Notes: generated by a model not told the origin, from the letters alone. A DNA stretch of 64,000 nt from an uncultured Candidatus Saccharibacteria bacterium (GCA_964593365.1 CAZQGQ010000001.1:244585-308584); one strand, 5' to 3'; shown: positions 8,170 to 51,178, counted from the stretch's first letter. Made by a program: numbers and translations.

Positions 8170-9228
8170 ATGCGTTTGTGGCATAGTGCTCTCATGACCA
8201 CCATCTTCTCAAAGGCCACCAGCGCCCTTCTTTTATTCGTCCTTATCGCTTCAAGTGCTCCGCTCGTAACGGAAGCCGCTTCTAAGCCAGCGATAAAGCT
8301 CACCGCACCGAGCGCCAAAAGCTCATTCGCAAAGAATGGCTCCGGCATCATCCCGATCGCTTGGGAAGCAAAGAATGTTCCAGACAAGACGCTCGTTATT
8401 GTCGAGCTAGCAAGCAAGAAACTAAAGAAAGGAGGTACCAATGGCGGAGGGTCATGGCAGTCCGTAGTTGCTGCTGGCAACAGCACCGGAAGCTACAACT
8501 GGGATATCGAAGGCGTCGGCCGACCAGACGCAGGTACGTATAAGGTCCGTGCCCTGCTTCAGGAATGCGTTTCAGGCGACTGCACGAAGAATCCATTCTT
8601 CCCTGGAGTAAAAAAGACGAAGACCTATGCCAAATCGAAGTGGGTCAACATCTCTATCACGACAAGCGGGCGAAACGAGAGCGACGAAGCGACTGAGGTC
8701 GTTGAGTCCCGAACGAACGGCCCGATCATGGTCTCGCTTACGCCAGTTGGCGGAATAGGAGATTCGCTCACCCTTAGCGCAAGCCAGAACGGCACGTTTA
8801 ATTACTATCCAAGCGGCGACGTCGTCTCCTGCACCGTTACGGGTAACTACGAGGGCGGCAAGCGAAAGGTGGAGCACGGCTGGAAGAACGCTATACAGCC
8901 GGGACAATACGGAACCGCAACGTTCAGCGCCGTTGCAGCCCACCCATTGAAGACGCTCCAATCGGTCGAGGTCGTATGCAAGAATGCCGCCTCAAAGGCA
9001 ACCGATACGGTCTCTGTCACGGTGACTGGATCTTCAGCTGAAGCTGACTATAAGATTCTCACTGGTAAGACCGGGAAAACGACCTTTAAGAAGGGAGAAG
9101 GTACCAAAGCTGACGCAGAAGCGTACTGCAAACAAGCGTACAATGACCCAAAGATCCACAAGAATACCCGCGTCCAGTGCTACTTTGACGGAGAACGGTT
9201 TGAGGACATCAAGGCCTTCAAGGGATAG
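8170..9228 (+). CDS. secreted hypothetical protein (signal peptide, Cys-containing, Gly/Thr-rich)
   Basis: N-terminal signal-like segment LLLFVLIASSAPLVTEAAS. Several Cys pairs. No recognisable catalytic motif. Confidence 0.55.
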   Translation: MRLWHSALMTTIFSKATSALLLFVLIASSAPLVTEAASKPAIKLTAPSAKSSFAKNGSGIIPIAWEAKNVPDKTLVIVELASKKLKKGGTNGGGSWQSVVAAGNSTGSYNWDIEGVGRPDAGTYKVRALLQECVSGDCTKNPFFPGVKKTKTYAKSKWVNISITTSGRNESDEATEVVESRTNGPIMVSLTPVGGIGDSLTLSASQNGTFNYYPSGDVVSCTVTGNYEGGKRKVEHGWKNAIQPGQYGTATFSAVAAHPLKTLQSVEVVCKNAASKATDTVSVTVTGSSAEADYKILTGKTGKTTFKKGEGTKADAEAYCKQAYNDPKIHKNTRVQCYFDGERFEDIKAFKG

Positions 9229-21423: not shown

Positions 21424-22716
21424 CTAGAGCGCGAAGGGCTGCGAGAGCACCCAGAGCCCGAAGGCGGTATAGAAGACCATAAGCACGAGCATAGGGAGCT
21501 GGCTTAGTAGCGCGCGTCCTCGCTCGGGGAATTCGCGAAGCGCGACTTGGTGCGAGATATAGGCGGCAAAGGCGTGGCCAAACACGATGATGGCAAGCTG
21601 GACGTACCAGACGCGATCGGCGCTGATCATGATGCCAAGAGAATTCAGCATTAAGGAGAAGTAGTGCGCGAAGTGATAGGCGAAGGCTATCGGTATAAGC
21701 GAGTAGGCAAACAAGAGCATGTAGTCGCGAAGCGACTTTGATCCTCGTACCAGCTTCTTCATGGCAAGGAGCGCTCCTGCGTAAAGCGCATAAAAGCCCA
21801 CCGGGAAGAGGAGGAAAATAATAAAGGAGGTCACGAACCAATCCGTCTTCAACAGATCGATAATCAGCGTTGCCATGGTCTCGGTTTCCCGGAAGCCGTC
21901 GAAAGCCGTTGCGGCAAGCGCAAAGAGAATGAATGCGAGAAGCGAGAGAGTAACGGGAGCTTCGTTTACGAGGCGAGAGACGGGGGAAGAAGTCGTTACC
22001 GATTGCTGCCCTACTCTCACTGGCGCCAGTTTTCCGGCAAGCGCGAAAAAGACTGAGAAGAACTCAGCATGCTCAAACCACACCTTCGTGCCGTAGCGGA
22101 TACTCCCGATATTGAGATAGGCAATATAGAGGAGGACGATGATAGCTAGAACCCGCGGAGTCGTCCCAAACACCGGGAAGAAGAGCTCGAGCACGATAAG
22201 GAGCACATAACCAATGAGCGCCGGCAGATACCCATGCTTCCATGGACGTTTGCCTGGCTGCGATTCTGGCTGCACGTTATCGACAATGATCTTAAAGGGA
22301 TTTCCAAGTTCCCAAATACCGCTGACGAGCATCGAGACATAGGGCACGATTAGCACGAGCCCGATCCAAAAGAGATAAGGAAATACGTTTTCCGATGCGC
22401 TTTGATTGCCAAAGAGCCCGAGCATAATGCCTATACCTAGCGCCCCGCCAAGCACGAGTTCGATAGCCACTACGAGCGGATTCCAGATGCGCTTAGGAAT
22501 CGCTGTCGTACGAGCGCTTTCTATAGAGCGCTCAGGCCCTGCAAAGACAAGGAGCGCGCACGAGACGATGAAGGCAGCTACGCCTCCAAGGACATAGAAG
22601 GTTACGGGAAGCGGCAGCGAGTATTGCTGGCCGAAGGCATGCGCGTTTGCAGCAAGCGGAAGGCCTGCAAGTGCGACGACGGCTGCTATGGGTAGCGAGT
22701 TACGGAAGAACTTCAA
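21424..22716 (-). CDS. polytopic membrane protein (about 12 TM), possibly CopD-like given its neighbours
   Basis: Hydrophobic throughout, with no clear motif. It is encoded immediately downstream of cupredoxin-like and YcnI-like genes on the same strand. Confidence 0.45.
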   Translation of the reverse strand: MKFFRNSLPIAAVVALAGLPLAANAHAFGQQYSLPLPVTFYVLGGVAAFIVSCALLVFAGPERSIESARTTAIPKRIWNPLVVAIELVLGGALGIGIMLGLFGNQSASENVFPYLFWIGLVLIVPYVSMLVSGIWELGNPFKIIVDNVQPESQPGKRPWKHGYLPALIGYVLLIVLELFFPVFGTTPRVLAIIVLLYIAYLNIGSIRYGTKVWFEHAEFFSVFFALAGKLAPVRVGQQSVTTSSPVSRLVNEAPVTLSLLAFILFALAATAFDGFRETETMATLIIDLLKTDWFVTSFIIFLLFPVGFYALYAGALLAMKKLVRGSKSLRDYMLLFAYSLIPIAFAYHFAHYFSLMLNSLGIMISADRVWYVQLAIIVFGHAFAAYISHQVALREFPERGRALLSQLPMLVLMVFYTAFGLWVLSQPFAL

Positions 22717-26132: not shown

Positions 26133-27341
26133 ATGGGCCAGAACAAACCCGAAGCATGCGAGGAGTGCGGCTCAGACGCCGTCTATCATCGCCTCACCTA
26201 TATAACGGTCGCGATCGACGAGGCATGCAAGCCGCTGTTTATGCCAGGACCTATCACGCGCTTTTTCGCGCGCGGCATTCTTGCCGTCGAACGGGTCGTG
26301 ACTCCAAGCATCTTCGAGTTCCTTATTAGCGTTGGTATCGCGAAGGTAGAGAAGTCCCCTGACGACGATACGATTCTTCTAGCCAAAGTGCTCTGGGAGG
26401 AGGCAGATAAGCGGGGCATCGATATGCTCGAGATCCGACTCTTTGGCCTTGCCAGGAATCTCTTCCTCGCACGCTTGCCTGACGGGCGCAAAATGGTCTT
26501 TGAAGGCATCCCGCTCCCATCTTCGAGCATCCGCCAGGCCTGGTGGCTCGATAACAAGGCAGAGATGAAGCGGCGCTTCAAGAAGGTAGGCATCCCGGTA
26601 GCAGCGGGAGGATCTGCGCTCACTAAGGAAGGCGCCAAGAGAATCTACAAGAAGCTCGTGCCTCCGGTAATTGAGAAGCCCTATTCGGGTTCCGCATCGC
26701 GGCATACCACGCTCCACATTGAAAACGAGGAAGAGCTGCTTCGCGCCTTTGCTGTCGCAACGCAGGTAGCGCCCCTCGCGATCATCGAGGAAGAGCTTAC
26801 GGGTCCGGTGTACCGGGCAACGGTCGTTGATGGGAAGCTGGAGGGCGTGATACGACGCGATCAACCCCATGTGATTGGTGACGGGGTGCACACTATCGAC
26901 GAGTTAGTGGCTGAGGCGAACAAGCACCCTGCGCGAGGCGGACCGTACTTCTCCAAGATGACCACGACGACCCCGGCTAATGTTGCCGAGCTTGCCTGGC
27001 AGTCTCTTTCGCCTTCAAGCGTCCCGGAGAAGGATAGGCGCGCAACGCTTCACCAGAAGATCAACTGGAGCGTTGGCGGAACGACCGCAGACGTCACTGA
27101 TGAGACGCATCCGGACAATGCGGAGCTGTTTGCGCGAGTTGCGAAGGTTCTTCGCTCGCCGATGGTCGGTCTGGACTTCATTATTGGCGACATTGGTCGC
27201 TCATGGAAGGAGCAGGAGCGCTGCGGCGTCATTGAATGCAACAGCATGCCGTTCTTCGATAACCACCACCTGCCGTTTGAGGGAAAGCCCCGAAATGTCG
27301 CGGGGGCCATCTGGGATATGGTCTCGTTCCGCAAGGGTTGA
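26133..27341 (+). CDS. ATP-grasp family ligase (RimK/cyanophycin-synthetase-like)
   Basis: ATP-grasp blocks VIEKPYSGSASRHT and VIECNSMPFF, a central B-subdomain, and an N-terminal CxxC-containing segment. Confidence 0.55.
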   Translation: MGQNKPEACEECGSDAVYHRLTYITVAIDEACKPLFMPGPITRFFARGILAVERVVTPSIFEFLISVGIAKVEKSPDDDTILLAKVLWEEADKRGIDMLEIRLFGLARNLFLARLPDGRKMVFEGIPLPSSSIRQAWWLDNKAEMKRRFKKVGIPVAAGGSALTKEGAKRIYKKLVPPVIEKPYSGSASRHTTLHIENEEELLRAFAVATQVAPLAIIEEELTGPVYRATVVDGKLEGVIRRDQPHVIGDGVHTIDELVAEANKHPARGGPYFSKMTTTTPANVAELAWQSLSPSSVPEKDRRATLHQKINWSVGGTTADVTDETHPDNAELFARVAKVLRSPMVGLDFIIGDIGRSWKEQERCGVIECNSMPFFDNHHLPFEGKPRNVAGAIWDMVSFRKG

Positions 27342-35451: not shown

Positions 35452-36213
35452 ATGCAGAAGACCTATCCCTTTCGAACGCGCTTTGGAGCTGACATCGTCA
35501 CGGAGTTTCTTCCTCCTGTCCGCCATTCAAACAAAGTCGTGATCCTGACAGCGGGATGTCCTGGATATCCAGGCGGCAAAGAAACGCTCATGCATCTTCT
35601 GGCAAGTAGAGGCTACTGGTCCTTTGTTCCGCGCTACCGAGGAACGTGGGAGAGCGGGGGAACATTCTTGGAATACGCGCCAAACGAAGACGTGATCGCC
35701 GTCATGGACGGGATGCAGGAAGAATTCTACGACCTGTGGAGCGGGTCCGAGTATCGCGTGCAAAACCCAGAAATCTATTTGATCGGAGGATCCTTCGGAG
35801 GAGCAGCGGCGCTTCTTGCCTCTCGCGATCCTCGAGTAAAGAAAGCGGCAACCATCTCCGCTGTTGTTGATTGGAAGAAGCAGGAGCAGACCCTAGAGCC
35901 GCTCCATCTTATGAGCGAGTACGTTCCGCAGGCCTTTGGCCAAGGATATCGTTCGGATCCGTCCGTCTGGATGAAGCTTGCTGCAGGCGGTTTTTATAAC
36001 CCAGAAGAAGAGAAGGAATCGATCGATGGGAAGAAGCTCCTCATGATCCACGCCAAGAACGACATGGTGGTGCACTTTGCGCCTGCACTTGAGTTTGCAA
36101 AGAGCGTGGGCGCGCAGTTTGTCGCGCTCTCGTATGACGGGCATATGGGAGTGGGAGCTGCAGGAGAACCGAAGCTCTTCCGGCGCATAGAGAAGTTTTT
36201 CAGGACAAAATAG
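35452..36213 (+). CDS. alpha/beta hydrolase (dienelactone hydrolase/S9-like)
   Basis: Nucleophile elbow GGSFGG, plus the late-catalytic Asp/His region HAKNDMVVHF. Confidence 0.7.
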   Translation: MQKTYPFRTRFGADIVTEFLPPVRHSNKVVILTAGCPGYPGGKETLMHLLASRGYWSFVPRYRGTWESGGTFLEYAPNEDVIAVMDGMQEEFYDLWSGSEYRVQNPEIYLIGGSFGGAAALLASRDPRVKKAATISAVVDWKKQEQTLEPLHLMSEYVPQAFGQGYRSDPSVWMKLAAGGFYNPEEEKESIDGKKLLMIHAKNDMVVHFAPALEFAKSVGAQFVALSYDGHMGVGAAGEPKLFRRIEKFFRTK

Positions 36214-36254
36214 GCTTCGAATTCTAGCCCGCTACACTACGATATACTTCTTCT

Positions 36255-36602
36255 ATGGATCATAAACAACTTAGCATAGGCTTCGTAGCGCTCGTAATAG
36301 GGCTAGGCGTGGGATACATGCTTAATACAACCCCCGTGCAGGTTGTTGAGGACGACACTGCCATGCATGGTGAAATGGAAAGCATGACAGGAGGTCTAAA
36401 AGGAAAAGTAAGCGATGATTTTGATAAGGCCTTTCTTGCAGAAATGATTGTGCACCACGAGGGCGCTATAGATATGGCGGAGGCAGCACTTCAAAACGCT
36501 AAGCACGAAGAGATAAAGACTATGGCAAATGCAATCATCTCTGCACAGACATCTGAAATCGTTCAGATGAAGGAGTGGCTGAGCAACTGGTACGGACAAT
36601 AA
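36255..36602 (+). CDS. DUF305 family protein (copper-stress associated four-helix bundle)
   Basis: DFDKAFLAEMIVHHEGAIDMA and a second histidine-containing helix, plus an N-terminal TM. Confidence 0.7.
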   Translation: MDHKQLSIGFVALVIGLGVGYMLNTTPVQVVEDDTAMHGEMESMTGGLKGKVSDDFDKAFLAEMIVHHEGAIDMAEAALQNAKHEEIKTMANAIISAQTSEIVQMKEWLSNWYGQ

Positions 36603-37228
36603 TGAGCCTCACTACTCTTAGGCGCCCTCTCGAATCATTCGGATTTGTCGAACGAGAGCGGCGTAACGGCAAGCAACTACATTTCAAATGCGAGAGAGAT
36701 TTCCTGTATTTCTGTCTCAATTTCTACTTTCCTGAGAAGTTCAATGCTTCGGCATGCAATCCAGAAGACATTGATCAGAGAAAACTCTTCGGGACACCAG
36801 TTCCTAAATATCTCGCTTGGACACAAATTCAATATTTCGATATGCCCGCTTTTTTCAAAAAGCACGGTCTCACGTTGTATATCAATAACCAGAAAATATC
36901 CTCCTATTTCAGCTTGATGTGGGCTATTTTGTTTTCAAGATTATCTCTAGATGAAGCGATGATCTCTCTTGAAGCCAATATAAATAACAATATCGCTTGT
37001 GCCATTGATATCCCTATAGAAAAGAAGAAATTTGTCCTCCTCGATCATGTAATGTTCGTCTATGGCTACGACAGTGAAAACGCCTACGTGTTTGATACCC
37101 TTACAGTTCCTGGACTTGCCTACGAAAGAATAAGAGACGACATACACTACTTTAAGTTGCCACGAGCAGTAATCGAGAAGAACTGGTGTCTATTTGGTCG
37201 GGTGTGGAGGGTGGAAAAGACTGCATAG
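36575..37228 (+). CDS. hypothetical protein (AT-rich island gene 1)
   Basis: 217-aa ORF of markedly lower GC. Repeat R1 follows its stop codon directly. The start may be the ATG at about 36602. Confidence 0.45.
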   Translation: MAEQLVRTIMSLTTLRRPLESFGFVERERRNGKQLHFKCERDFLYFCLNFYFPEKFNASACNPEDIDQRKLFGTPVPKYLAWTQIQYFDMPAFFKKHGLTLYINNQKISSYFSLMWAILFSRLSLDEAMISLEANINNNIACAIDIPIEKKKFVLLDHVMFVYGYDSENAYVFDTLTVPGLAYERIRDDIHYFKLPRAVIEKNWCLFGRVWRVEKTA

Positions 37229-37256
37229 GGTTCCAACATCGTCCCAGACAGCCAGC
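37229..37256 (+). repeat. island repeat R1: GGTTCCAACATCGTCCCAGACAGCCAGC
   Basis: Identical to R3 over all 28 nt. It begins at the first base after the TAG stop. Confidence 0.8.
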
Positions 37257-37282
37257 TAATAAGTTTATGCTACAGTCTTGTC

Positions 37283-37828
37283 ATGATTAAGATCACGTAC
37301 TTCGTACACGGTACGACCGTAGATAACCAAAATGACATTTCTTCCGGCTGGTCGGATGCTCCACTTTCCGAACTTGGTATTCAGCAGTCCAAAGATCTCA
37401 GGGAGCAAACGAAAGATATGCATTTCGATGTGGTCTTTTGTTCAGATTTACAACGCGCACAGATTTCGGCAGAGCTTGCCTGGAAAGGTCTGTACGAAAT
37501 CATTCCTGATGCTCGTCTTCGAGAATGTAATTATGGGGATTTAAATGGAGGACCATCGGAGATCGTCGAGCCGCTCCAGGAAAAGGAAATGCATTACAAA
37601 CCCTTTCCTGGGGGCGAAAGCTATGAAGACGTTAAGAATCGCGTAGCTGACTTTCTCGAGTTTCTTAAAGCAAACTATGACGGTAAGCATGTCGCTCTTG
37701 TGGGCCATAAGGCCCCTCAGCTTTCGCTCAATGTCTTACTTAAAGGCATGACCTGGGATGAGGCGCTCGCAAGCGACTGGCGCAAGACTAAGTCATGGAA
37801 GCCAGGTTGGGAATATCAGCTAGATTAA
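37283..37828 (+). CDS. histidine phosphatase (phosphoglycerate mutase) superfamily protein
   Basis: YFVHGTTVDN...GWSDAPLSELGIQQ...FDVVFCSDLQRAQISA follows the branch-1 His-phosphatase pattern. The usual RHG reads VHG here. Confidence 0.65.
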   Translation: MIKITYFVHGTTVDNQNDISSGWSDAPLSELGIQQSKDLREQTKDMHFDVVFCSDLQRAQISAELAWKGLYEIIPDARLRECNYGDLNGGPSEIVEPLQEKEMHYKPFPGGESYEDVKNRVADFLEFLKANYDGKHVALVGHKAPQLSLNVLLKGMTWDEALASDWRKTKSWKPGWEYQLD

Positions 37829-37835
37829 GCAAAAA

Positions 37836-37863
37836 AGTTCCAGCATCGTCCCAGACAGCCAGC
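37836..37863 (+). repeat. island repeat R2: AGTTCCAGCATCGTCCCAGACAGCCAGC
   Basis: 26 of 28 nt identical to R1. It begins 8 nt after the TAA stop and is preceded by an A-run. Confidence 0.8.
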
Positions 37864-37883
37864 AATAAGTTAGAATTGAACCT

Positions 37884-38432
37884 ATGGATTCAAGGATTCT
37901 GAATGTAATAGATCAAGAAGGGAATATTGTTCGTGAAGCTACACGGGAGGAAATACATAAGAACGGTCTTCTGCACGCTGAAGTGCATGTCTTGTTTTAC
38001 ACACCAGATAGGAAAGTCATCTTTCAACATCGTGCAAAAGACAAGGACACTTATCCAGATCTTTTGGATGCGACTGTTGGAGGTCATGTCGAACCTGGCG
38101 ACACTTATGAAGAAACAGCGTTGAAAGAAGCTGGAGAAGAGGTGGGTATTTCTGTAGATCCCAAAAGCCTTATCCCTCTTCGCACAGTTATAACAAAATC
38201 ATATGATGAGGTAACGGGAACCATCAATCATCCGAGGCGCAGTATTTATGCATATCGATACGAGGGTGCGTTAGAGGACTTACGTATCGAAGAAGGGAAA
38301 GCGATTGGGTTTGAGGCCTGGTCTATCGATAAGCTTTTTGCTTTAACAATAGACGAGCAGAAGAAGTTCATTCCACTACTTATTGGAGATATTTACATCG
38401 ATATCTATAAACAAATTCAAGATTTAATATGA
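37884..38432 (+). CDS. NUDIX hydrolase
   Basis: Nudix box GGHVEPGDTYEETALKEAGEEVGI (G-x5-D-x7-KEAxEExGI). Confidence 0.7.
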   Translation: MDSRILNVIDQEGNIVREATREEIHKNGLLHAEVHVLFYTPDRKVIFQHRAKDKDTYPDLLDATVGGHVEPGDTYEETALKEAGEEVGISVDPKSLIPLRTVITKSYDEVTGTINHPRRSIYAYRYEGALEDLRIEEGKAIGFEAWSIDKLFALTIDEQKKFIPLLIGDIYIDIYKQIQDLI

Positions 38433-39178
38433 TGGAAAATGTCTCAATTTCCAATAATAAGGGTCAACAGCTCTCAGCGAATATGTATCCATCAAAGACA
38501 GCAACCCATAAACTTGCCATTCTCTGTCCAGGGTACTTAGACACCAAAGATTACGTGCATCTGGTGCGTCTTGCTGAGCAGCTTACAGGGCGTGGGTATA
38601 CAGTCGCTTCTTTTGATCCAACTGGTACCTGGGGAAGTGAAGGTTCTAATGAGGAGTATTTAACGTCTCAATACCTAGAAGACATTAAGAGTGTTCTCGA
38701 ATACATGCTTAGCCAGGCTCCTTACAGCAGTATTCTTTTAGGTGGCCATAGTCGAGGCGGCCAAGTCGCAATATTATATGCCGCACATGACCCACGTGTG
38801 ACGCAAATTCTAGCGATTATGCCTTCACATGGGCCAGTGGAGGGATCGCGCAGAGAAGAGTGGGAGAAAGAAGGGTTTAAAGACTCGGATAGAGACATTC
38901 CTGGAAGTACTGATCGTAAGTACTTCCATATTCCCTTCAAGCACGTATTAGACCGAGATCAATTTGATGCTCTTGGAGATATAAAGAAAATAAAAGCATC
39001 AATAATCCTTATTGCCGGCGAGCTCGACGACTTAGTCACTCCGGAGGAAGTACGACAGCTCTATGATGCGGCTAATCAGCCCAAGAAATATATGATACTA
39101 GAGGGGATTGGTCACGATTATCGTTTGAATTCAAAGGAAGTGGAAAGAGTGAATATAGCGATTCTTAAGGAGATTTAG
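38429..39178 (+). CDS. alpha/beta hydrolase
   Basis: Nucleophile elbow GGHSRGG, plus the C-terminal GHDYRL catalytic His region. It overlaps the NUDIX gene by 4 nt (ATGA). Confidence 0.7.
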   Translation: MMENVSISNNKGQQLSANMYPSKTATHKLAILCPGYLDTKDYVHLVRLAEQLTGRGYTVASFDPTGTWGSEGSNEEYLTSQYLEDIKSVLEYMLSQAPYSSILLGGHSRGGQVAILYAAHDPRVTQILAIMPSHGPVEGSRREEWEKEGFKDSDRDIPGSTDRKYFHIPFKHVLDRDQFDALGDIKKIKASIILIAGELDDLVTPEEVRQLYDAANQPKKYMILEGIGHDYRLNSKEVERVNIAILKEI

Positions 39179-39185
39179 CAAAAAA

Positions 39186-39213
39186 GGTTCCAACATCGTC
39201 CCAGACAGCCAGC
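39186..39213 (+). repeat. island repeat R3: GGTTCCAACATCGTCCCAGACAGCCAGC
   Basis: Identical to R1. It begins 8 nt after the TAG stop and is preceded by an A-run. Confidence 0.8.
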
Positions 39214-39250
39214 AAAACGAGAATAGATTGGAAATTGGTATACTGAGTCG

Positions 39251-39583
39251 ATGATGGAAGGTTTAAGACAAAAGATCGCACGTACCATGCCGGAAGGGCC
39301 CGACACAAAAGAAGTGCTAGCGCGTGTTGAGGAGATATCTGTTACGCTCCTTTATCCTATAAAAAAAGAAGAGAGAGAAGATGCGCGTGCGAAGCTTCTG
39401 GAAGCTCTTACGACAATGTCGCCTGAGGAACGCGCAAAGACGGCACGAGCGGTAAGCGCCATTGTGGAAACATTAGAGAAGAGCCCGTATAGGAATGTGG
39501 GGTTTAACGGATCTTTGATTCGAAGGCAGTTGGCAGACATAGGGCCAGTAGCAGAAGCTCTAAACGCTTCGAATCAGGAATAA
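39251..39583 (+). CDS. hypothetical 110-aa protein (AT-rich island gene 5)
   Basis: ORF with predicted helices. No recognisable motif. Confidence 0.4.
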   Translation: MMEGLRQKIARTMPEGPDTKEVLARVEEISVTLLYPIKKEEREDARAKLLEALTTMSPEERAKTARAVSAIVETLEKSPYRNVGFNGSLIRRQLADIGPVAEALNASNQE

Positions 39584-39594
39584 AAACCTACCCT

Positions 39595-39622
39595 GGTTCC
39601 AACATCGTCCCAAACAGCCAGA
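39595..39622 (+). repeat. island repeat R4: GGTTCCAACATCGTCCCAAACAGCCAGA
   Basis: 26 of 28 nt identical to R1. It begins 12 nt after the TAA stop. A terminator hairpin follows it. Confidence 0.75.
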
Positions 39623-39631
39623 CGTATAAAA

Positions 39632-39662
39632 TAAAAACACCCGCCGGAAGCGGGTGTTTTTA
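39632..39662. terminator. bidirectional rho-independent terminator (ACACCCGC-CGGAA-GCGGGTGT plus T-run)
   Basis: GC-rich hairpin between the island end and the convergent rpsA gene. A/T runs lie on both sides. Confidence 0.7.
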
Positions 39663-39672
39663 TGTCCAACTC

Positions 39673-40821
39673 TTACTTCTTTGCGTCCTTGCCGAGGAAG
39701 GAGAGCGTCATGCGCTGATCCTTTGGCTCGAAGACCTTGATAACAAACGGGTAAGTCTTACCAAGCTCAAGCACCTCTTTGAGTTCCTGTGGGGAAGCGA
39801 ACTCGCTGATGTGCACCAAGCCGGCAACGCCTTCCTCGATTGAGGCGAGGGCACCGTGCTTGTTGTACTTGATGATGACGCCTGAGATTTCCATACCCTT
39901 CTTGTAACGGTCAGACGCGGTCTTCCAAGGGTTTTCCTTGAGCGCCTTGATCGAAAGGGAAATCTTTCCGTCCTTGATCTCGATCACCTTCACCTCAACC
40001 TTGTCGCTTACCTTGAAGAGGGTGCGAGGATCCTCGACGAGTCCCCAATCAAGTTCAGAGATGTGCACGAGTCCTTCAAGGCCCTGCTCGAGTTTGACGA
40101 AGACGCCAAAGTCGACAGCTCCCGTGACTTCTCCCGTGACAACGTCACCAACCTGGTACTTGTCGATGAGTGAAGTCTTCTCCTCATCCTCTGAGCCAGT
40201 GCGCTCCGAGAAGATAAGCTTCGCTTCTTTTGGCTCTGCAGTGATGATGCGGACCGAAAGCACCTGTCCGACAAGCTTGCCGAGCTCCCCAAGGATCTTG
40301 TCCTTGTCTCCCTCAGGCACGCGCGGGTAGTGCTCCTTTGCAAGCTGGGAAGCAGGCAAGAAGCCCTTGATACCCTGCCACGTGAGGATGAGTCCTCCCT
40401 TGTTGGCTTCCTCGACCATAAGCGAGTACGTGGTCTGTCCGAGGATTGCCTGATCGGCTTCGCTCCAGATAGCAGCCTGGCGAGCCTCTTTCAACGAAAG
40501 CTCGATGTAGCCTTCGATGCCTGAGGGATCGACGACCTTTGCAGAGATAGTGTCTCCCGGGTTTGCCTTGCGGAGGATGTCAGCTGCGTTTAGGTACTCG
40601 CGTCCGTAGATGATACCTGTTCCAAATGGAGGCAGGTCAACATAGAGGCGTCCGCGCGAAAGCGCGATGATGGTTCCTTCGATGAGGTCTCCGGCAGACG
40701 GAGGCGTCATGATCGAATCCACCAGATTTGCCATCGGGTGTCCTTCTTCAAACGAAACAGTTACTGGAATAGGCGACGTCTTCTTCTCGTCCGTTGCGAC
40801 AACGGCAGTATCTTCACTCAT
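39673..40821 (-). CDS. rpsA: 30S ribosomal protein S1 (four S1 domains, short form)
   Basis: Repeated S1 OB-fold modules, for example GDVVTGEVTGAVDFGVFVKLEQGLEGLVHISEL. Confidence 0.8.
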   Translation of the reverse strand: MSEDTAVVATDEKKTSPIPVTVSFEEGHPMANLVDSIMTPPSAGDLIEGTIIALSRGRLYVDLPPFGTGIIYGREYLNAADILRKANPGDTISAKVVDPSGIEGYIELSLKEARQAAIWSEADQAILGQTTYSLMVEEANKGGLILTWQGIKGFLPASQLAKEHYPRVPEGDKDKILGELGKLVGQVLSVRIITAEPKEAKLIFSERTGSEDEEKTSLIDKYQVGDVVTGEVTGAVDFGVFVKLEQGLEGLVHISELDWGLVEDPRTLFKVSDKVEVKVIEIKDGKISLSIKALKENPWKTASDRYKKGMEISGVIIKYNKHGALASIEEGVAGLVHISEFASPQELKEVLELGKTYPFVIKVFEPKDQRMTLSFLGKDAKK

Positions 40822-42407: not shown

Positions 42408-44882
42408 ATGCCAAAGAAGAAAGACGAGCCAGTGGATCCTGCCGTTCCCGTAAGCGCGGCAAACGTCATATCCCAGTCGATCACGACTGAGATGCGCCAG
42501 TCGTACATCGACTACGCGATGACGGTCATCACGTCACGCGCATTGCCTGACATCCGCGACGGCTTGAAGCCCGTGCACCGCCGCATCCTCTACGCGATGC
42601 GCCAGACAGGACTCACTCCTACTGCAAAGTTCCGAAAGTCAGCGACAGTGGTCGGAGAGGTGCTCGGTTCCTACCACCCGCACGGCGACACGTCCGTCTA
42701 TGACGCGATGGTAAAGCTCGCGCAGGATTTTGCGACCCGCTATCCGCTTGTGACCGGCCAGGGAAACTTCGGCTCAATCGACGGAGACCCGCCAGCTGCA
42801 TACCGCTATACGGAGGCAAAGATGTCTCGCCTTGCAGACGAGATGCTCCGCGACCTTGAGAAGGAAACCGTGCTCTGGGCTCCGAACTTCGACGGCTCCA
42901 AGCAAGAACCGACCGTGCTCCCGGCAGCCGCTCCGAACCTTCTTTTGAACGGAACGTTGGGCATTGCCGTTGGTATGGCAACGAACATTCCTCCGCATAA
43001 CTTGCGAGAGGTAGTTGATGCGACGACGCACCTGATTGATAACTCGGACGCAACGACCGAAGACCTTTTGAAATTCGTGCAGGGACCCGATTTCCCGCTT
43101 GGAGGACTCGCCTTCAACCAGACTGATATCAAGCACGCGTACCTTACCGGCAAGGGAGGAGTCGTCACACGCGGCGTCGCAGAAATTATCGAGGATAAGA
43201 AGGGAAGCTCGATCATCATCACCTCCATTCCCTTCCGCGTTAACAAAGCAGACCTTATTACGCGTATCGCAGACCTGGTCCGCGACAAGAAGCTTGAGGG
43301 CATCAAGGATCTTCGCGACGAGTCAGCCGAAGACATCCGCGTTGTCGTTGAGTTGAAGGGCACTGCGCATCCGCAGGTGGTATTGAACGCTCTCTATAAG
43401 CACACGGAGCTTGAGACGACCTTCCACTACAACATGCTCGCGCTTGTCGACGGGGTACCGCAGACTCTTTCCCTGAAAGCATTCCTCGAGCACTTCATCG
43501 AGCACCGCCGCGAGGTGGTGAAGCGCCGCACCGAATACGATCTTCGCAAGGCCGAAGAACGCGAGCATATCCTTTTGGGACTCTCCAAGGCGCTCGATCA
43601 TATCGATGAGGTGATCGCGGTCATTAAGAAGGCGCCGGACGTAGGATCCGCGTCGCTTGCGCTCCAGAAGAAGTTCGCATTCTCCGACCGCCAGGCAGCG
43701 GCCATCCTCGCTATGCGCCTCCAGACGTTGGCTGGTCTTGAGCGGAAGAAGATCGAGGATGAGCTTACGGAAGTACAGGAACTCATAAAGCAGCTTAAGA
43801 AGATTCTCTCCTCAGCCAAGAGCATTCTTGCGGTCGTTCGCGACGAGCTCGTGCAGCTTCGCGATAAGTACGGAGACGATCGCCGCACGAAGATCATCAA
43901 GGGCGGAGTGAAGAACATCTCACTCGAAGACATGGTTCCTGATGATGAGTCGGTCTTGGTGCTCACCCAGGGCGGGTACGTGAAGCGAACGAACCCGAAC
44001 GAGTACAAGGCGCAGAAGCGCGGAGGCATTGGCGTCATTGATATGTCTACCAAGGAAGAAGATGTAGTCACGCATTTCTTGGTGGCCTCAGCGCACTCCG
44101 ATCTCTTGTTCTTCACTGACTACGGCAAGGCGTATCAGGTGAAGATGTACGACATTCCTGAAGGGCGCCGCGCAACCAAGGGCAAGTCGATCATGAACTT
44201 CCTCCCGCTTGCAGGGGACGAGAAGGTCACGTCCGTGCTTGCTGTTCCTAAGGGCGCCGCACGCGAGGCGATGTCCGTATTTTTCGTAACGTTGGAAGGA
44301 ATCGTAAAGAAGGTCGCAGCCGCAAGCTTCGCAGATGTTCGCCGCTCAGGAATCATCGCTATCAGCTTGAAGGGCAAGGACAGGCTTGTCACCGCAAACC
44401 TAGCTCAAGATGGAGACAGTGTTTCTATAGTTACGTCGAAAGGCCAGTCGATCCGGTTCGATGAGGCAGATGTGCGCGCCATGGGCCGAACTGCAGCAGG
44501 CGTTCGCGGCATGACGGTCAAGAAGGGAGATCAAGTGGTTTCTGCAGAAGTCGTTCCCGCAGCCGAGAAGAAAGCATCGCTCCTCATCATCATGGGCAAG
44601 GGATACGGCAAGCAGACCTCGATGGATGAATACAAGATCCAGGGACGCGGAGGCTCGGGTATCAAGACTGCGGAAGTCACCGCGAAGACCGGAGAGATCA
44701 TCGGCGCGAAGGTTCTGATTGGAGCAAACGAGCTTGAAGAAGAGATTGTGGTCATTTCAAAGAAAGGACAGGTTATCCGCTGCTCATCTGGGGAGATTCC
44801 TTCATTGTCGCGAGCAACGCAGGGCGTGCGGATCATGAAGATGCGCGAAGGGGACTCAATCGCATCGATGGTTGCGCTCTAG
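42408..44882 (+). CDS. gyrA: DNA gyrase subunit A
   Basis: [31 protein letters not shown], with active-site Tyr in the AAMRYTE-type block (YRYTEAKMS). GyrA-box-like KRGGIGV and six C-terminal beta-pinwheel repeats. Confidence 0.95.
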
Positions 44883-46787: not shown

Positions 46788-47318
46788 ATGAACTTCTCCG
46801 ATCCGCTCCACAACATCCTTCGCATGGGACTGAAGGAGGGAATGAAGGTTGCTGATCTTGGGACGGGGTCAGGACACTACGCGATTTCGGCAGGACATAT
46901 CGTTGGGCCTACTGGCCGCGTGTACGCCGTTGATATCCAGGAAGATATCCTGACGCGCCTCACTGCGGAAGCTAAGGTGCGCGGCCTTACTAATATAGAG
47001 ACGATCTGGGCTGACTTTGAACACCTCGAAGGAACGACGCTTCGACCGCGCGTCTTGGACGCGGTCGTGCTTTCAAATACGCTATTCCAGCTTGAGAAGA
47101 AAGAAGGCGCGCTCGCTGAAATCAAGCGCATCTTGAAGCCTGGAGGGAAGCTACTCGTGGTTGACTGGATGGAATCCTTCGGAGGTATCGGTCCGCATAA
47201 GGAGCATGTCGTTCCGGAAGCCGAAGCCGAAGCGCTCTTTATCAAGGCAGGCTTCACGAAGCTGAAAGCGTTCCTTGGAGGCCCGTACCATTATTCTCTT
47301 TTGTTTGAAGCACCCTAA
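46788..47318 (+). CDS. class I SAM-dependent methyltransferase
   Basis: Motif I VADLGTGSGHYA, motif post-I VYAVDIQ, motif II/III region ILKPGGKLLVVDW. Confidence 0.75.
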   Translation: MNFSDPLHNILRMGLKEGMKVADLGTGSGHYAISAGHIVGPTGRVYAVDIQEDILTRLTAEAKVRGLTNIETIWADFEHLEGTTLRPRVLDAVVLSNTLFQLEKKEGALAEIKRILKPGGKLLVVDWMESFGGIGPHKEHVVPEAEAEALFIKAGFTKLKAFLGGPYHYSLLFEAP

Positions 47319-47337: not shown

Positions 47338-48645
47338 ATGAAGAACCTTCGCCCTTTCCAGATCGGTGCCATCGCAATTGCTGTCGTGCTCGCGCTTGGC
47401 GGCCTCTACACCTTCACTACCTTCACCGGTTTTGGAAACGACAAGGAGGCGATCGGCACGGTCACGATTTGGGGAACGCTGCCGCAGGCCGCGCTTGATG
47501 CAGGACTCGATGAGCTCTCGCTCACGAGCAGCGAGAAGTATGCGAACGTCTCCTATATTGAACGACCCGCCGCATCCTTTAGTTCTGACCTTGCAAACGC
47601 AATCGCATCAGGGAGCGGACCTGACCTCATCATCATTTCGCAGGAAGACTTGCTTACCGAGCGAGGGAAGCTGAACGTCATTCCTTTTGATTCGATCCCG
47701 CAGCGCACCTATACCAGCGCCTTTCTTCCGATTTTCCAGCTCTATCTGACCGAAGAGGGAACCTACGGCGTTCCGCTTGTCGTTGACCCGCTTGTCCTCT
47801 ATTACAACCGCGCGATCCTTTCTTCAGTCGGAGTGACGCGTGCTCCGTCTACCTGGGATGCCGTCTCAGGCCTTGCTATGGGTGTCACCGGCCGCGACGA
47901 CCGGGGAACGGTGACGCGAAGCCTCATCTCGCTTGGTGAATACCAAAACGTCTCAAACGCCCGAGCCATCCTCTCGCTTTTGTTCTTGCAGGCAGGCTCC
48001 ACTATTACCGAGCAGCTTCCCGTTGGCGTTCGTTCGACCCTTGTAAACGGAGGAAGCTCGAGCTTTGGTGCAACGCCCGCGCAATCCGCACTAAGCTTCT
48101 ATGCGCAGTTCGCAGATCCGGCTAAGACCGTCTATTCCTGGAACCGCTCGCTCCCTGAGTCCCGGCAAGCATTCTTATCGGGAGACCTGGTCCTTTACCC
48201 AGGCTTTGCTTCCGAAGAGCCGTACCTGACTTCGGCAAACCCGAACCTTTCCTATGACATGGCGCCCATGCCCCAGCCCTCAACAAATCCGGTTCGCATC
48301 GGCTACGGACTTGCATACGCATTTGCGGTCCCAAAAGCTTCTGCAAATCCGCTCGGAGCGCTTGCGCTCTCGCTTGAGCTTACGGCGCCCGCCCCCATGA
48401 CCGTGATAGCAGAGTCAGTTGCCATGGCTCCTGCCAGGCAGAACCTGCTAACGCCTCCTGCAGACAATCTCTACGCTCCGATTTACTTCAGCGAAGCCTT
48501 GATTGCCACAGGATGGTTATCCCCTGCGCCCTATGTCACGGACGCCGTCTTCTCCGCTATGATTAGCGACATAATCACCGGACGATTGGATGCTGAAGGA
48601 GCAGTCCAGAAAGGTGATCAATCCTTGAATGCCGTACTTCGCTAA
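47338..48645 (+). CDS. membrane-anchored extracellular solute-binding-like protein
   Basis: N-terminal TM (IGAIAIAVVLALGGL), then a roughly 400-aa periplasmic-binding-protein-like domain (..GPDLIIISQEDLLT..VPLVVDPLVLYYN..). The start was moved to ATG 47338. Confidence 0.5.
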   Translation: MKNLRPFQIGAIAIAVVLALGGLYTFTTFTGFGNDKEAIGTVTIWGTLPQAALDAGLDELSLTSSEKYANVSYIERPAASFSSDLANAIASGSGPDLIIISQEDLLTERGKLNVIPFDSIPQRTYTSAFLPIFQLYLTEEGTYGVPLVVDPLVLYYNRAILSSVGVTRAPSTWDAVSGLAMGVTGRDDRGTVTRSLISLGEYQNVSNARAILSLLFLQAGSTITEQLPVGVRSTLVNGGSSSFGATPAQSALSFYAQFADPAKTVYSWNRSLPESRQAFLSGDLVLYPGFASEEPYLTSANPNLSYDMAPMPQPSTNPVRIGYGLAYAFAVPKASANPLGALALSLELTAPAPMTVIAESVAMAPARQNLLTPPADNLYAPIYFSEALIATGWLSPAPYVTDAVFSAMISDIITGRLDAEGAVQKGDQSLNAVLR

Positions 48646-49357
48646 GACTATGATCTCTCCCCGACACCTCTTCGTCTCTCTTCTTCTTGGCGTTTCTTTG
48701 CTGCTTCCGTTTGGGGCAGCAGCGCAGTATCCAAACTGCAACCCGATGACTTCAACCCCCTGCAACATGCCGGAGGGTCAGGCAGACTTCTGCGCGACCG
48801 CTAGCACGGTGAGCGATCAGAAGATGGCCTGCGAAAACATTGGCGGGGGACAGGTACTAACCTCCGCAGCGTCTACCGCAGGCGGCATGAGCTGTGCTGC
48901 GAACCGAACCCCCTGCCAAGTCGATGGCACGAACTTCTGCGCGAACGGCGGGGCATCGGCATGTAATGCGGCGAACGGCGAAGTCATCACGAGCGCTAAT
49001 CCAAACCCCGATCCGGCTCCTACTCCAGGCACCCCTACCGATGATGCGACCACAACATCTACTTCAACTGATGCAGGATCGACAGCGGTCGGAGGCGGAA
49101 CGCTCCTCAATCCACTTGGCGTCGATTCGCTTGAAGACCTTCTGACTGCCGTGCTTGGAGCGGTAGTGCAGATCGGTTCTATCTTCCTCGTCTTGGCACT
49201 CGTCTGGGTCGGCTTCCTCTTCGTCTTTGCGCAAGGGAACGAGGAGAAGATCAAGACCGCACGTCAGGCCCTCTTCTGGACCATCATCGGCGGCTTGGTA
49301 CTTCTTGGCGCGCAGGCGATCTCGATGGTAATCCAGGCAACCGCTGAAGCGCTATGA
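48629..49357 (+). CDS. pilin-like two-TM family member P1: signal peptide, N-terminal Cys-rich ectodomain, Pro/Thr linker, C-terminal two-helix core
   Basis: Signal peptide LLLGVSLLLPFGAAAQ. There are 11 Cys in C-x-x-x-C-like spacing and a PNPDPAPTPGTPTDDATTTST linker. The core LVLALVWVGFLFVFAQGNEEKIKTARQALFWTIIGGLVLLGAQAI is shared with P2-P7. Confidence 0.65.
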   Translation: MPYFAKTMISPRHLFVSLLLGVSLLLPFGAAAQYPNCNPMTSTPCNMPEGQADFCATASTVSDQKMACENIGGGQVLTSAASTAGGMSCAANRTPCQVDGTNFCANGGASACNAANGEVITSANPNPDPAPTPGTPTDDATTTSTSTDAGSTAVGGGTLLNPLGVDSLEDLLTAVLGAVVQIGSIFLVLALVWVGFLFVFAQGNEEKIKTARQALFWTIIGGLVLLGAQAISMVIQATAEAL

Positions 49358-49602
49358 CCTTCAAGCAATTCGTCGAAGGGACCATTGTGCAGGCAGTGGA
49401 TTCATCTATCATTCCGCTCATGTATGCGCTTGCGTTCTTGTTCTTCATTTATGGCGTAGCCCAGACGATGTTCTCGTATAACGAAGAGAAGCGTCAGGAA
49501 GGGAAGAAGTTCGCGCTCTGGGGCATCATCGGGCTCGTGGTCCTCTTTAGCGTCTGGGGAGTCGTGAAGCTCTTTTTGACCGTGCTTACGAACGGTTTAT
49601 AA
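49354..49602 (+). CDS. pilin-like two-TM family member P2 (core only)
   Basis: IIPLMYALAFLFFIYGV...NEEKRQEGKKFALWGIIGLVVLFSVWGVV. It overlaps P1 by 4 nt (ATGA). Confidence 0.65.
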   Translation: MTFKQFVEGTIVQAVDSSIIPLMYALAFLFFIYGVAQTMFSYNEEKRQEGKKFALWGIIGLVVLFSVWGVVKLFLTVLTNGL

Positions 49603-49641
49603 CCGGTTTGCGAAGCATCTACTCACTGATACCTTATACCC

Positions 49642-50163
49642 ATGGACATCTTCCAATTCATGCTGCACCTGACGGTCTTCATCGACCGCTTCCTGATTCC
49701 ATTTATATTCGCAATAGCGTTCCTCGTGTTTGTCTGGGGCGTCTACATGTATTTCATCCAGGGCGGGGGAAACGACGAGAAGCGCAAAGAGGGCCGCACC
49801 TTCATCCTTTACGGCATCGGAGGGTTCGTCATCATGATCGCCATCTGGGGCATCGTGAACGTGCTTATCAGCTCGCTTGGCTTTGATACGAAAGGACGTC
49901 CGCCTCTTCCGTCCTTCGGAACGCCGACAGGGACAGTAAACAGCGCCACTACCACTAATAACAATGTGTTTAATACCGGTAACGGAGTCGCAGATTGTCG
50001 CGTAGCTCCTAATCAGTGCTATTCGGGCTATACCTGTACGGCATCGTCCGGATATACGCTTTGCGAGCCGGTCGTCACCGGAGGAGGTAATCAGACCACC
50101 TGTACACCTGAATGTACTAACGGGACGACCTGTGTTGCTGGCACTTGTCAGTCGAGCATCTAG
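49642..50163 (+). CDS. pilin-like two-TM family member P3: core plus Asn/Thr linker plus C-terminal Cys-rich domain
   Basis: LIPFIFAIAFLVFVWGV...GGGNDEKRKEGRTFILYGIGGFVIMIAIWGIVN, then ...CRVAPNQCYSGYTCTASSGYTLCEPV...CTPECTNGTTCVAGTCQSSI. Confidence 0.65.
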   Translation: MDIFQFMLHLTVFIDRFLIPFIFAIAFLVFVWGVYMYFIQGGGNDEKRKEGRTFILYGIGGFVIMIAIWGIVNVLISSLGFDTKGRPPLPSFGTPTGTVNSATTTNNNVFNTGNGVADCRVAPNQCYSGYTCTASSGYTLCEPVVTGGGNQTTCTPECTNGTTCVAGTCQSSI

Positions 50164-50254
50164 TTAGTTTGTTTTCCACACTGCACCCTGCAGTCTATTG
50201 ACGCCCTAAACTGGCGGTCTATGCTGTAGGCATACCTTACCCATATAATCTCTC

Positions 50255-50605
50255 ATGAAAAAACTCGCTATTCTCGTCGCTACGTGGACCCTCCCGATTG
50301 TTGCGCTTGCGCAGGTCCGGGACGTCTTTCAGGCTGCTACGCTCATCACCCAGATCATTAACGGCGTTCTCGTTCCGCTCGTGTTCGCGATCGCCTTTAT
50401 CGTCTTCATCTGGGGCGTTTTCACGTACTTCATCCTTTCGGGAGGAAATGCTGAGAAGCGCGAAGAGGGACAGAAACTCATGCTCTACGGCATCGTTGGT
50501 TTCTTCGTGATGGTCGCTGTGTGGGGACTCGTTAACATCCTCCTCGGTACCTTCCAGTTGAACAACAACATCCCGAGCCTTCCTGGCGCTCCAGGACCTC
50601 GATAA
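50255..50605 (+). CDS. pilin-like two-TM family member P4 (signal peptide plus core)
   Basis: Signal peptide MKKLAILVATWTLPIVALAQV, then LVPLVFAIAFIVFIWGV...GGNAEKREEGQKLMLYGIVGFFVMVAVWGLVN. A TATAAT lies 10 nt upstream of the ATG. Confidence 0.65.
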   Translation: MKKLAILVATWTLPIVALAQVRDVFQAATLITQIINGVLVPLVFAIAFIVFIWGVFTYFILSGGNAEKREEGQKLMLYGIVGFFVMVAVWGLVNILLGTFQLNNNIPSLPGAPGPR

Positions 50606-50620
50606 CTCACAGGAGTTTAG

Positions 50621-50648
50621 AAAAGACCCGGGCAACCGGGTCTTTTTC
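50621..50648 (+). terminator. rho-independent terminator after P4 (GACCCGG-GCAA-CCGGGTC plus TTTTT)
   Basis: A 7-bp GC stem with a GNRA-like loop and a 5-T run separates P4 from P5. Confidence 0.7.
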
Positions 50649-50664
50649 GTTATAGAATGCAGAT

Positions 50665-50901
50665 ATGACTTTCGGCGGACTCTTCTCCATGCTCGTGTAC
50701 CAAGGACTTATCCCGCTCGCCTTCACGATCCTCTTCATCACCTTCCTGTGGGGCCTCTTCACCTTTGTCGTTGCAGGAGGACCAGATGAGGAAGCGAAGG
50801 AGAAAGGGAAGGCGCTTCTCTTCTACGCCCTCCTTGGGTTTCTCGCTCTCATCGTCTTTTGGGGAGTCGCTAACATAGTGCGCGACCTGTTCTCCGCCTA
50901 A
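50665..50901 (+). CDS. pilin-like two-TM family member P5 (core only)
   Basis: LIPLAFTILFITFLWGL...GGPDEEAKEKGKALLFYALLGFLALIVFWGVAN. Confidence 0.6.
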   Translation: MTFGGLFSMLVYQGLIPLAFTILFITFLWGLFTFVVAGGPDEEAKEKGKALLFYALLGFLALIVFWGVANIVRDLFSA

Positions 50902-50923
50902 CGCTTCGGTATATACTTCACGT

Positions 50924-51178
50924 ATGGAACCCTTCAATCAATTCATCGTAACGGTCCAAGAGCAGATTCTTTCACCGCTTCTGACCCTGATCGCACTTGC
51001 AGCCTTCGTCGTCTTTGTCTGGGGCGTCGTTGACTTCATCCGTGGCGCAGATAACGAGGAGCGTCGCAAATCAGGGCAGCAACACATGATCTGGGGCATT
51101 ATCGGCCTCGTGATCATCTTTGGCGCAAACGCCATCATCACCATGCTGCAGGCGACGCTGACAAACACATTCAACTAA
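50924..51178 (+). CDS. pilin-like two-TM family member P6 (core only)
   Basis: LSPLLTLIALAAFVVFVWGV...GADNEERRKSGQQHMIWGIIGLVIIFGANAI. Confidence 0.6.
   Translation: MEPFNQFIVTVQEQILSPLLTLIALAAFVVFVWGVVDFIRGADNEERRKSGQQHMIWGIIGLVIIFGANAIITMLQATLTNTFN

Follow-up and report, generated by a model that had tools for sequence, protein, structure and literature searches.

Which kind of system is encoded by six small membrane protein genes that follow one another on a bacterial chromosome, and what would their products do at the cell surface? We addressed this question for a stretch of 64,000 nucleotides (CAZQGQ010000001.1:244585-308584 of assembly GCA_964593365.1), referred to as the window and numbered from its first letter, for which a preliminary description had reported a tandem array of paralogous two-helix membrane proteins resembling VirB2/TrbC conjugative pilins, some of them with Cys-rich ectodomains. 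With high confidence we assign the six genes to the Pfam family PF18895 (T4SS_pilin, T4SS standing for type IV secretion system): they are VirB2-like pilin paralogs that have diverged from one another and form an array on the chromosome of an ultra-small Paceibacteria bacterium (candidate phyla radiation (CPR)/Patescibacteria), the genome of which has about 650 kb.

The array comprises six consecutive open reading frames (ORFs) on the plus strand, termed P1 to P6, that span positions 48650-51178 (from 48629 if the longer start of P1 is used). P1 (48650-49357; 235 aa with the start found in most public gene calls, 242 aa from 48629) contains, from the N- to the C-terminus, a signal peptide (AAA↓Q), an ectodomain with eight Cys residues arranged as two 4-Cys repeats, a Pro/Thr linker and the VirB2-like two-helix core. 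P2 (49354-49602, 82 aa), the start of which overlaps the P1 stop (ATGA), is a core-only pilin-like protein, and P3 (49642-50163, 173 aa) continues beyond its core with an RPPLPSFG motif, an Asn/Thr/Gly linker and an 8-Cys C-terminal tail. P4 (50255-50605, 116 aa) combines a signal peptide (ALA↓Q) with the core and a short Pro-rich tail, and both P5 (50665-50901, 78 aa), the most divergent copy, and P6 (50924-51178, 84 aa) are again core-only and pilin-like. The six same-strand genes with a common two-helix core of the preliminary description were thus recovered as ORFs and as PF18895 matches, and P4 indeed carries a signal peptide as its only added secretion or display module. The modules proposed for P1 (signal peptide, Cys-rich ectodomain, Pro/Thr linker) and for P3 (Asn/Thr linker, C-terminal Cys-rich domain) were found as well, but the 11 and 10 Cys residues counted in them had to be corrected to eight in either protein.

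Aligned over about 85 columns, the six cores share pairwise identities of 15.6-47.8% (mean 27.8%), the closest paralog of P3 being P4 (47.8%), and only two columns are invariant. Every core contains two hydrophobic 19-mers, visible as hydropathy peaks, and between them a loop with three to four K/R residues; the consensus formulated earlier for the two transmembrane (TM) helices and their loop fits P2-P5 well and P6 partly, but P1 poorly. A profile built from the six cores and run on 931 ORFs of the window matched P1-P6 and a single further ORF, termed P7 (59858-60808), and nothing else. The 'seven core modules' of the preliminary description are therefore six in the array, and seven only if the 316-aa P7 is counted. 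The selectivity of this profile, together with the PF18895 matches, argues that the similarity among the six ORFs is not due to chance. Signal peptides were judged from sequence by a heuristic, which found AXA cleavage motifs in P1, P4 and P7 and no signal peptide in P2, P3, P5 and P6, the ORFs of which cannot be extended upstream. An AlphaFold2 (AF2) model of P1 contains a helical hairpin (H161-193/H198-234) with a predicted local distance difference test (pLDDT) score >90 and a β-rich second Cys repeat (pLDDT about 80-85).

All six array proteins matched PF18895 with E-values of 1.7e-11 to 7.7e-5. The curated gathering cut-off of this family (26.6 bits) was reached by P1 (36.3 bits), P2 (41.9 bits), P3 (28.8 bits), P4 (39.6 bits) and P6 (44.4 bits) as well as by P7 (33.3 bits); P5 stays just under it with 23.1 bits, although the profile of the array itself gives it 100 bits. 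The profile comparison suggested in the preliminary description thus assigns the core to T4SS_pilin, with five of the six copies above the cut-off. TrbC/VirB2 (PF04956, membership at 27.9 bits) was matched below threshold by P1 (22.1 bits, E = 1.8e-4) and P6 (20.3 bits, E = 6.3e-4), and at E<0.01 by 61 of 67 P1-type homologues (best 1.2e-7). The likeness to VirB2/TrbC proposed earlier is upheld by these matches, and a relationship between PF18895 proteins and TrbC/VirB2 is supported at the level of profiles, short of PF04956 membership itself. The only NCBIfam model matching all six proteins was the Mbov_0395 pilin-like conjugal transfer protein (NF045849; E 6e-6 to 6e-10), with all scores under its 40-bit cut-off (P6, 38.7 bits). 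A search of a large protein database returned 2,236 homologues at E<=1e-3, and those with a meaningful name are termed 'pilin' and assigned to Patescibacteria or Paceibacterota. Named relatives belong to Paceibacterota, Parcubacteria, Kaiserbacteria, Terrybacteria and Jorgensenbacteria, which fits the earlier guess that the host is an episymbiont.

Divergent VirB2-like pilins encoded in tandem have already been described from Patescibacteria (PMC10633639, PMC12102498, PMC12857230). One survey lists 441 VirB2 arrays of 2-11 divergent genes in 383 Patescibacteria assemblies; within these arrays identity averages 25% and reaches at most 54% (PMC12102498). The window array fits this description quantitatively and belongs to the published kind, not to a new one: it agrees with the arrays of Quinonero-Coronel et al. 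2025 (PMC12102498) in the PF18895/PF04956 criterion, in the copy range and in the mean identity of about 25%, and differs from them in that theirs are most abundant in Microgenomatia and Saccharimonadia. The novelty claimed in the preliminary description was thus overstated, as a Pfam entry exists, tandem arrays are on record and terminal extensions, regarded there as unusual, are common in the PF18895 family.

In Southlakia epibionticum ML1, a monoderm CPR bacterium, six tandem divergent PF18895 proteins (SEML1_0014-0019), some also matching TrbC/VirB2 and one with an N-terminal extension of >100 aa, are encoded inside a T4SS cluster beside VirB4-like, PrgI and VirB6-like genes, and their array is essential by transposon sequencing (Tn-seq) (Wang et al. 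2023, PMC10633639). The window array, in contrast, is chromosomal, has no T4SS gene near it in the window or within 10 kb on either side of the window, shares an operon with a gene of the SBP_bac_1 family, is equipped with Cys-rich modules and belongs to the class Paceibacteria. With classical VirB2/TrbC/TraA proteins the window proteins share a helix-loop-helix hairpin of ~70 aa with a basic loop, a weak but repeated profile similarity and, in P1, P4 and P7, a predicted signal peptide; they differ in scoring under the cut-off, in four leaderless copies, in ectodomains fused at either end and in the lack of a linked VirB4, VirB5 or VirB6 at the array. Monoderm conjugative T4SSs normally have no pilin (PMC12857230), and the host of the window array is a monoderm. 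Several divergent tandem VirB2 copies are also present in Bartonella and Anaplasma, where, according to the work cited in PMC12102498, they are read as antigenic or host-range variation; these bacteria are diderm intracellular pathogens, and the copies lie within vir loci and carry no fused domains. Long DNA repeats of the kind expected for cassette-type antigenic variation were sought in the window array, and only segments of 16-75 nt with 60-89% identity were found, so that, compared with Bartonella and Anaplasma, the array has no long DNA repeats suggesting ongoing gene conversion. The Mbov_0395 model, from Mycoplasma integrative and conjugative elements (ICEs), likewise describes a two-helix protein of small size that belongs to the T4SS of a wall-less or monoderm cell, but the window locus has no ICE context and its scores are under the cut-off.

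The gene in front of the array (47338-48645, plus strand, 435 aa) encodes an SBP_bac_1-like solute-binding protein (SBP) with an N-terminal TM anchor and is the first gene of a conserved SBP-pilin unit. It scored 56.4 bits against SBP_bac_1 (PF01547; cut-off 26) and 50.6 bits against SBP_bac_8, and it matched maltose/sugar-binding proteins of the PDB with E-values of 4.9e-9 to 4e-6, one match being full-length. When relatives were sought by the SBP alone, with one genome per species, 14 loci of 58-28% identity were obtained, and in all 12 with downstream sequence three to seven pilin genes follow directly after the SBP gene on the same strand. The same succession was seen in two relatives found via their pilins (L009, L011), so that SBP genes with coupled pilins are present in the window and in L009, L011, L013-L021 and L024-L026, all from Paceibacteria lineages. 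In 12 of 14 related loci the first pilin gene starts -4 to +8 nt from the SBP stop, and because of the overlapping junctions we argue for co-translation of the SBP gene and P1. Further upstream, gyrA (42408-44882, plus strand) precedes the SBP-pilin unit in 14 of 16 related loci. In 13 of these 16, tblastn placed a gene for a class I S-adenosylmethionine (SAM)-dependent methyltransferase (46788-47318, plus strand, 176 aa; Methyltransf_11/25/31 of Pfam in public gene calls) directly in front of the SBP gene, downstream of gyrA. The gyrA-methyltransferase-SBP_bac_1-pilins block is thus a fixed chromosomal landmark. The main text of PMC12102498 does not contain 'solute', 'substrate-binding' or 'gyrA', and its only 'cysteine' is part of the name of a VirB1 amidohydrolase domain.

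No permease or ATPase of an ATP-binding cassette (ABC) transporter adjoins the SBP gene, the neighbours being gyrA, a cupin gene, the methyltransferase gene and the pilin array, and the same holds for the 14 related loci; the sole ABC gene of the window encodes an exporter-type fused protein 30 kb from the SBP gene. Separately, an orphan SBP_bac_5 gene lies beside secG some 6-8 kb before the window begins (L027 1503-3488). Southlakia epibionticum has this pairing too (SEML1_0634/0635), and its Tn-seq table classes the two genes as essential. At its other end the array is followed by four tRNA genes downstream of P6, so that both bounds given in the preliminary description, the SBP-like gene (recognised by Pfam) and the tRNA cluster, are correct. 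Its terminator after P4 was recovered as an intrinsic-terminator-like hairpin on the plus strand (50620-50650; GACCCGG-GCAA-CCGGGTC with flanking A- and T-tracts): the RNA fold of 50604-50662 has -23.1 kcal/mol and z = -5.15, and none of 200 shuffled sequences was as stable. This hairpin was found by sequence reading and RNA folding; a terminator pattern scan did not flag it.

The succession of modules is conserved along with the linkage. The same six-position architecture is present in four related loci (L013, L014, L015, L019), the gene order in the closest relatives being signal peptide-ectodomain-core, core-only, core plus Cys-rich tail, signal peptide-core, and one or two core-only genes; a P5-like gene occurs in L014, L015, L017 and L019. 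The linkage of the paralogs in related genomes, a check proposed in the preliminary description, is therefore maintained, with both the array and the order of its six positions kept directly after the SBP gene. The modules outside the core behave differently from the core. Across 66 homologues the core of the P1 type retains 49-78% identity (mean 66%), whereas the P1 ectodomain could be aligned in only five of these 66; lengths vary from 129 to 273 aa and Cys counts, mostly even, from 0 to 17. P3-type tails of homologues and positional orthologues have 2, 4 or 8 Cys residues. Among 1.84 billion representatives the P1 ectodomain has three true relatives, all of them P1-type pilins; relatives outside the pilins were sought as well, and two of the five hits (P0245, P0246) were rejected as compositional artefacts. 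This pattern is the signature of what we take, from sequence comparison, to be a conserved assembly module with a rapidly replaced exposed module. A BLASTP comparison of the P1 ectodomain with the P3 tail gave E = 0.84 and no support for homology. Elsewhere the leading array genes are extended by as much as about 450 aa, and one such extension looks subtilase-like. The second array gene of locus L016 (12266-13816) encodes a protein of 516 aa that ends in the pilin core; its N-terminal domain of ~450 aa contains a subtilase-like 'GTSFSAPRLAAHAA' motif.

The seventh paralog, P7, is encoded outside the array on the plus strand and consists of a signal peptide, a CxC...C motif, a VirB2-like hairpin and a C-terminal domain of ~150 aa (residues 169-316). 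The PF18895 match covers residues 50-114, and in the AF2 model the pLDDT is about 84-93 for the hairpin and >93 for the C-terminal domain. P7-type homologues, 7 of 38 of which match TrbC/VirB2, share the N-terminal part and end in VanY, SLT/SLT_3, Peptidase_M15_4 or lysozyme-like domains; other genomes encode members of the SLT type at P7's own locus, ClpB...miaA-ParB. The C-terminal domain of P7 itself was recognised neither by Pfam nor by a profile search of PDB sequences or a fold search. It contains invariant His, His, Asp, Glu and His residues as well as an SxHxxGxCxD-like and a GEHF motif, and another subgroup of homologues differs from it by a circular permutation. We consider it a putative cell-wall metallohydrolase, a role suggested by the orthologues; its reading as a LAS/VanY domain, based on the motifs and the invariant His/Asp/Glu residues, is unconfirmed.

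What might these proteins build? Following the positive-inside rule and the analogy with VirB2/TraA, the K/R-rich loop would be located in the cytoplasm and both termini would point outward. This orientation would explain why the N-terminal ectodomain of P1 is preceded by a signal peptide and the C-terminal module of P3 requires none, and how both Cys-rich modules could form disulfides outside the cell. P2, P5 and P6 and, after cleavage of its signal peptide, P4 would be the bulk subunits of a membrane-rooted polymer or pilus, and the decorated P1 and P3 would act as minor subunits, presenting their hypervariable Cys-rich modules to a host or partner cell. Assembly would be carried out by a monoderm-type T4SS (VirB4, VirB6, PrgI) encoded elsewhere in the genome, an arrangement frequent in Patescibacteria, and the SBP-like protein and P7, a pilin-like anchor with a putative wall hydrolase, would probably be accessory extracytoplasmic factors in the wall zone. 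We regard this explanation as a whole, i.e. an array of VirB2-like pilins assembled by a T4SS and decorated with minor subunits, as probable with moderate confidence, and rate the steps that invoke a pilus and dependence on a T4SS as about equally likely to be right or wrong.

Several observations weigh against this explanation. In agreement with the preliminary description, neither VirB4 nor VirD4, VirB11 or a PilB-like ATPase is encoded in the 64-kb window, no T4SS ATPase or channel gene was found within 10 kb on either side of it, and no T4SS gene, including virB4, lies beside the array in any relative examined, so that dependence on a T4SS is something we infer. None of the window proteins reached the gathering score of TrbC (best P1, 22.1 vs 27.9 bits), and four of the six copies have no signal peptide, unlike classical VirB2/TrbC. 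Core profiles gave no significant match to PDB sequences, no solved pilin being found by sequence, and fold searches against solved structures were uninformative; the link to the classical pilins therefore rests on profile similarity. In the literature a PF18895 filament is only a possibility (PMC12857230), and by the published accounts cited here no pilus of PF18895 proteins has been visualised in any organism. The diversifying surface display proposed in the preliminary description stays an inference, which the hypervariability of the ectodomains supports.

As to where the assembly genes may be found, the large ORFs of the window are housekeeping genes (MurJ, LepA, a class I tRNA synthetase, the ABC exporter, FtsZ/FtsA, GyrA, IF-2, ClpB and others), the contexts of P7-type and SBP homologues contained only housekeeping genes, and in relatives (best match to seryl-tRNA synthetase (SerRS) 74% identical) no Walker-A ORF of at least 380 aa was present in the 10 kb beyond SerRS. 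A VirB4 of the Patescibacteria clade was reported for 2,407 Patescibacteria assemblies of roughly 3,000 surveyed, in Paceibacteria usually near dnaA/dnaN, and a pilin gene lies near virB4 in only 1,135 of the 1,948 assemblies having both genes (PMC12102498). Beyond the right end of the window parB (L028 6896-7843, ~1.9-2.9 kb past the end), relA/spoT, topA, dprA and serS were observed. The nearby parB hints at a replication origin, and the dnaA-linked T4SS cluster described for Paceibacteria may hence not be far.

The main rival explanation dispenses with a T4SS. Paceibacteria could have turned the hairpin into an anchor in the membrane or a scaffold for oligomerisation, and the SBP-pilin operon, working without a T4SS, would be a device for capture or adhesion at the cell surface. 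The SBP-like protein would then bind a host-derived glycan or another ligand, and the hairpins, instead of polymerising into a pilus, would keep hydrolases, proteases and the Cys-rich modules at the membrane surface. Such a reading would account for the linkage to the SBP gene with overlapping or nearly overlapping junctions down to 28% SBP identity and without virB4 in any locus seen, for the fusion of the same hairpin to VanY, SLT and M15 domains in P7-type proteins and to the subtilase-like domain in L016, for the signal peptides missing from most copies and for an SBP that no adjacent ABC permease explains. Saccharibacteria, however, keep the same Pfam family inside an essential T4SS cluster, and more than half of the assemblies with both genes (the 1,135 of 1,948 given above) do have a pilin gene near virB4. 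Moreover, gyrA and the methyltransferase gene are conserved by the SBP gene too, so that part of the SBP-pilin linkage may be plain synteny, and the core-only proteins P2, P5 and P6 would be poor display anchors but make sense as bulk subunits. We regard this rival, with the ligand-binding and anchoring roles that it implies, as unlikely.

Two further explanations fare far worse. That the six ORFs share no function, being alike merely through the composition of membrane helices and through gene duplication, would agree with the two invariant columns and with the many weak matches of the array proteins to unrelated membrane families in the Pfam scan; the consistent PF18895 matches, the positional orthologues kept in many species with 49-78% core identity, the essentiality of the homologues in S. 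epibionticum (PMC10633639) and the retention of the array in so small a genome (about 650 kb) make this very improbable. Type IV (PilA-like) pilins or pseudopilins, assembled by PilB/PilC, came into consideration because of the small size and the N-terminal hydrophobic segments, and type IV pili are known to be important in Patescibacteria (PMC12857230). This candidate was rejected: the seven sequences have neither a class III prepilin leader nor the G↓(F/M)TLxE motif, all of them contain two TM helices where a single one would be expected, the Pfam/NCBIfam matches at E<=1 include no type IV pilin family, and no PilB, PilC or PilD gene is present in the window, which leaves it the least probable explanation of all, with hardly any weight.

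Apart from the array, the region 36000-40000 of the window differs in composition, with a G+C content of 0.45 compared with about 0.54 elsewhere. It encodes a histidine phosphatase, a NUDIX hydrolase, two alpha/beta hydrolases and an ORF without a Pfam hit (36575-37228), and may be an acquired island. At the thresholds used, ORFs 21424-22716 (minus strand, 430 aa), 26133-27341 (plus, 402 aa), 7230-8132 (plus, 300 aa) and 8170-9228 (plus, 352 aa) had no Pfam match either.

With the array recognised as one of VirB2-like pilins of a published kind, three features go beyond the published descriptions cited here. It stands in a conserved gyrA-methyltransferase-SBP-pilin cassette and not beside a T4SS ATPase, its module layout is conserved position by position, with conserved P1 cores set against hypervariable ectodomains, and the positional orthologues of P7 carry different cell-wall hydrolase domains. 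A more speculative interpretation, which we hold to be rather improbable, is that the VirB2-like hairpin serves in Paceibacteria as a general extracytoplasmic display and assembly module, and that a vertically inherited gyrA-methyltransferase-SBP-pilin operon, kept at a fixed site of the chromosome and uncoupled from virB4, builds a surface organelle. The sugar-binding homologue and the hypervariable disulfide-rich tips might then recognise or harvest host material, and P7-like sisters might position interchangeable wall hydrolases, a proposal that is just as tentative. If true, this would define a new functional class derived from T4SS pilins, possibly the determinant of the host specificity of these episymbionts.

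The role of the T4SS and of pilin arrays in Patescibacteria is considered an open question in reviews (PMC11665869; PMC12857230), and in the one Patescibacteria species tested the T4SS pilin arrays are essential (PMC10633639). The locus offers a handle on this question in the form of a conserved SBP-pilin operon that is physically apart from the secretion ATPase. The pilin-like anchors fused to interchangeable wall hydrolases provide another. The division of labour between conserved core-only and hypervariable Cys-rich copies predicts which subunits would contact the host. All of these leads can be put to the test in Paceibacteria or Saccharibacteria grown in culture, or by comparing genomes with respect to host range.

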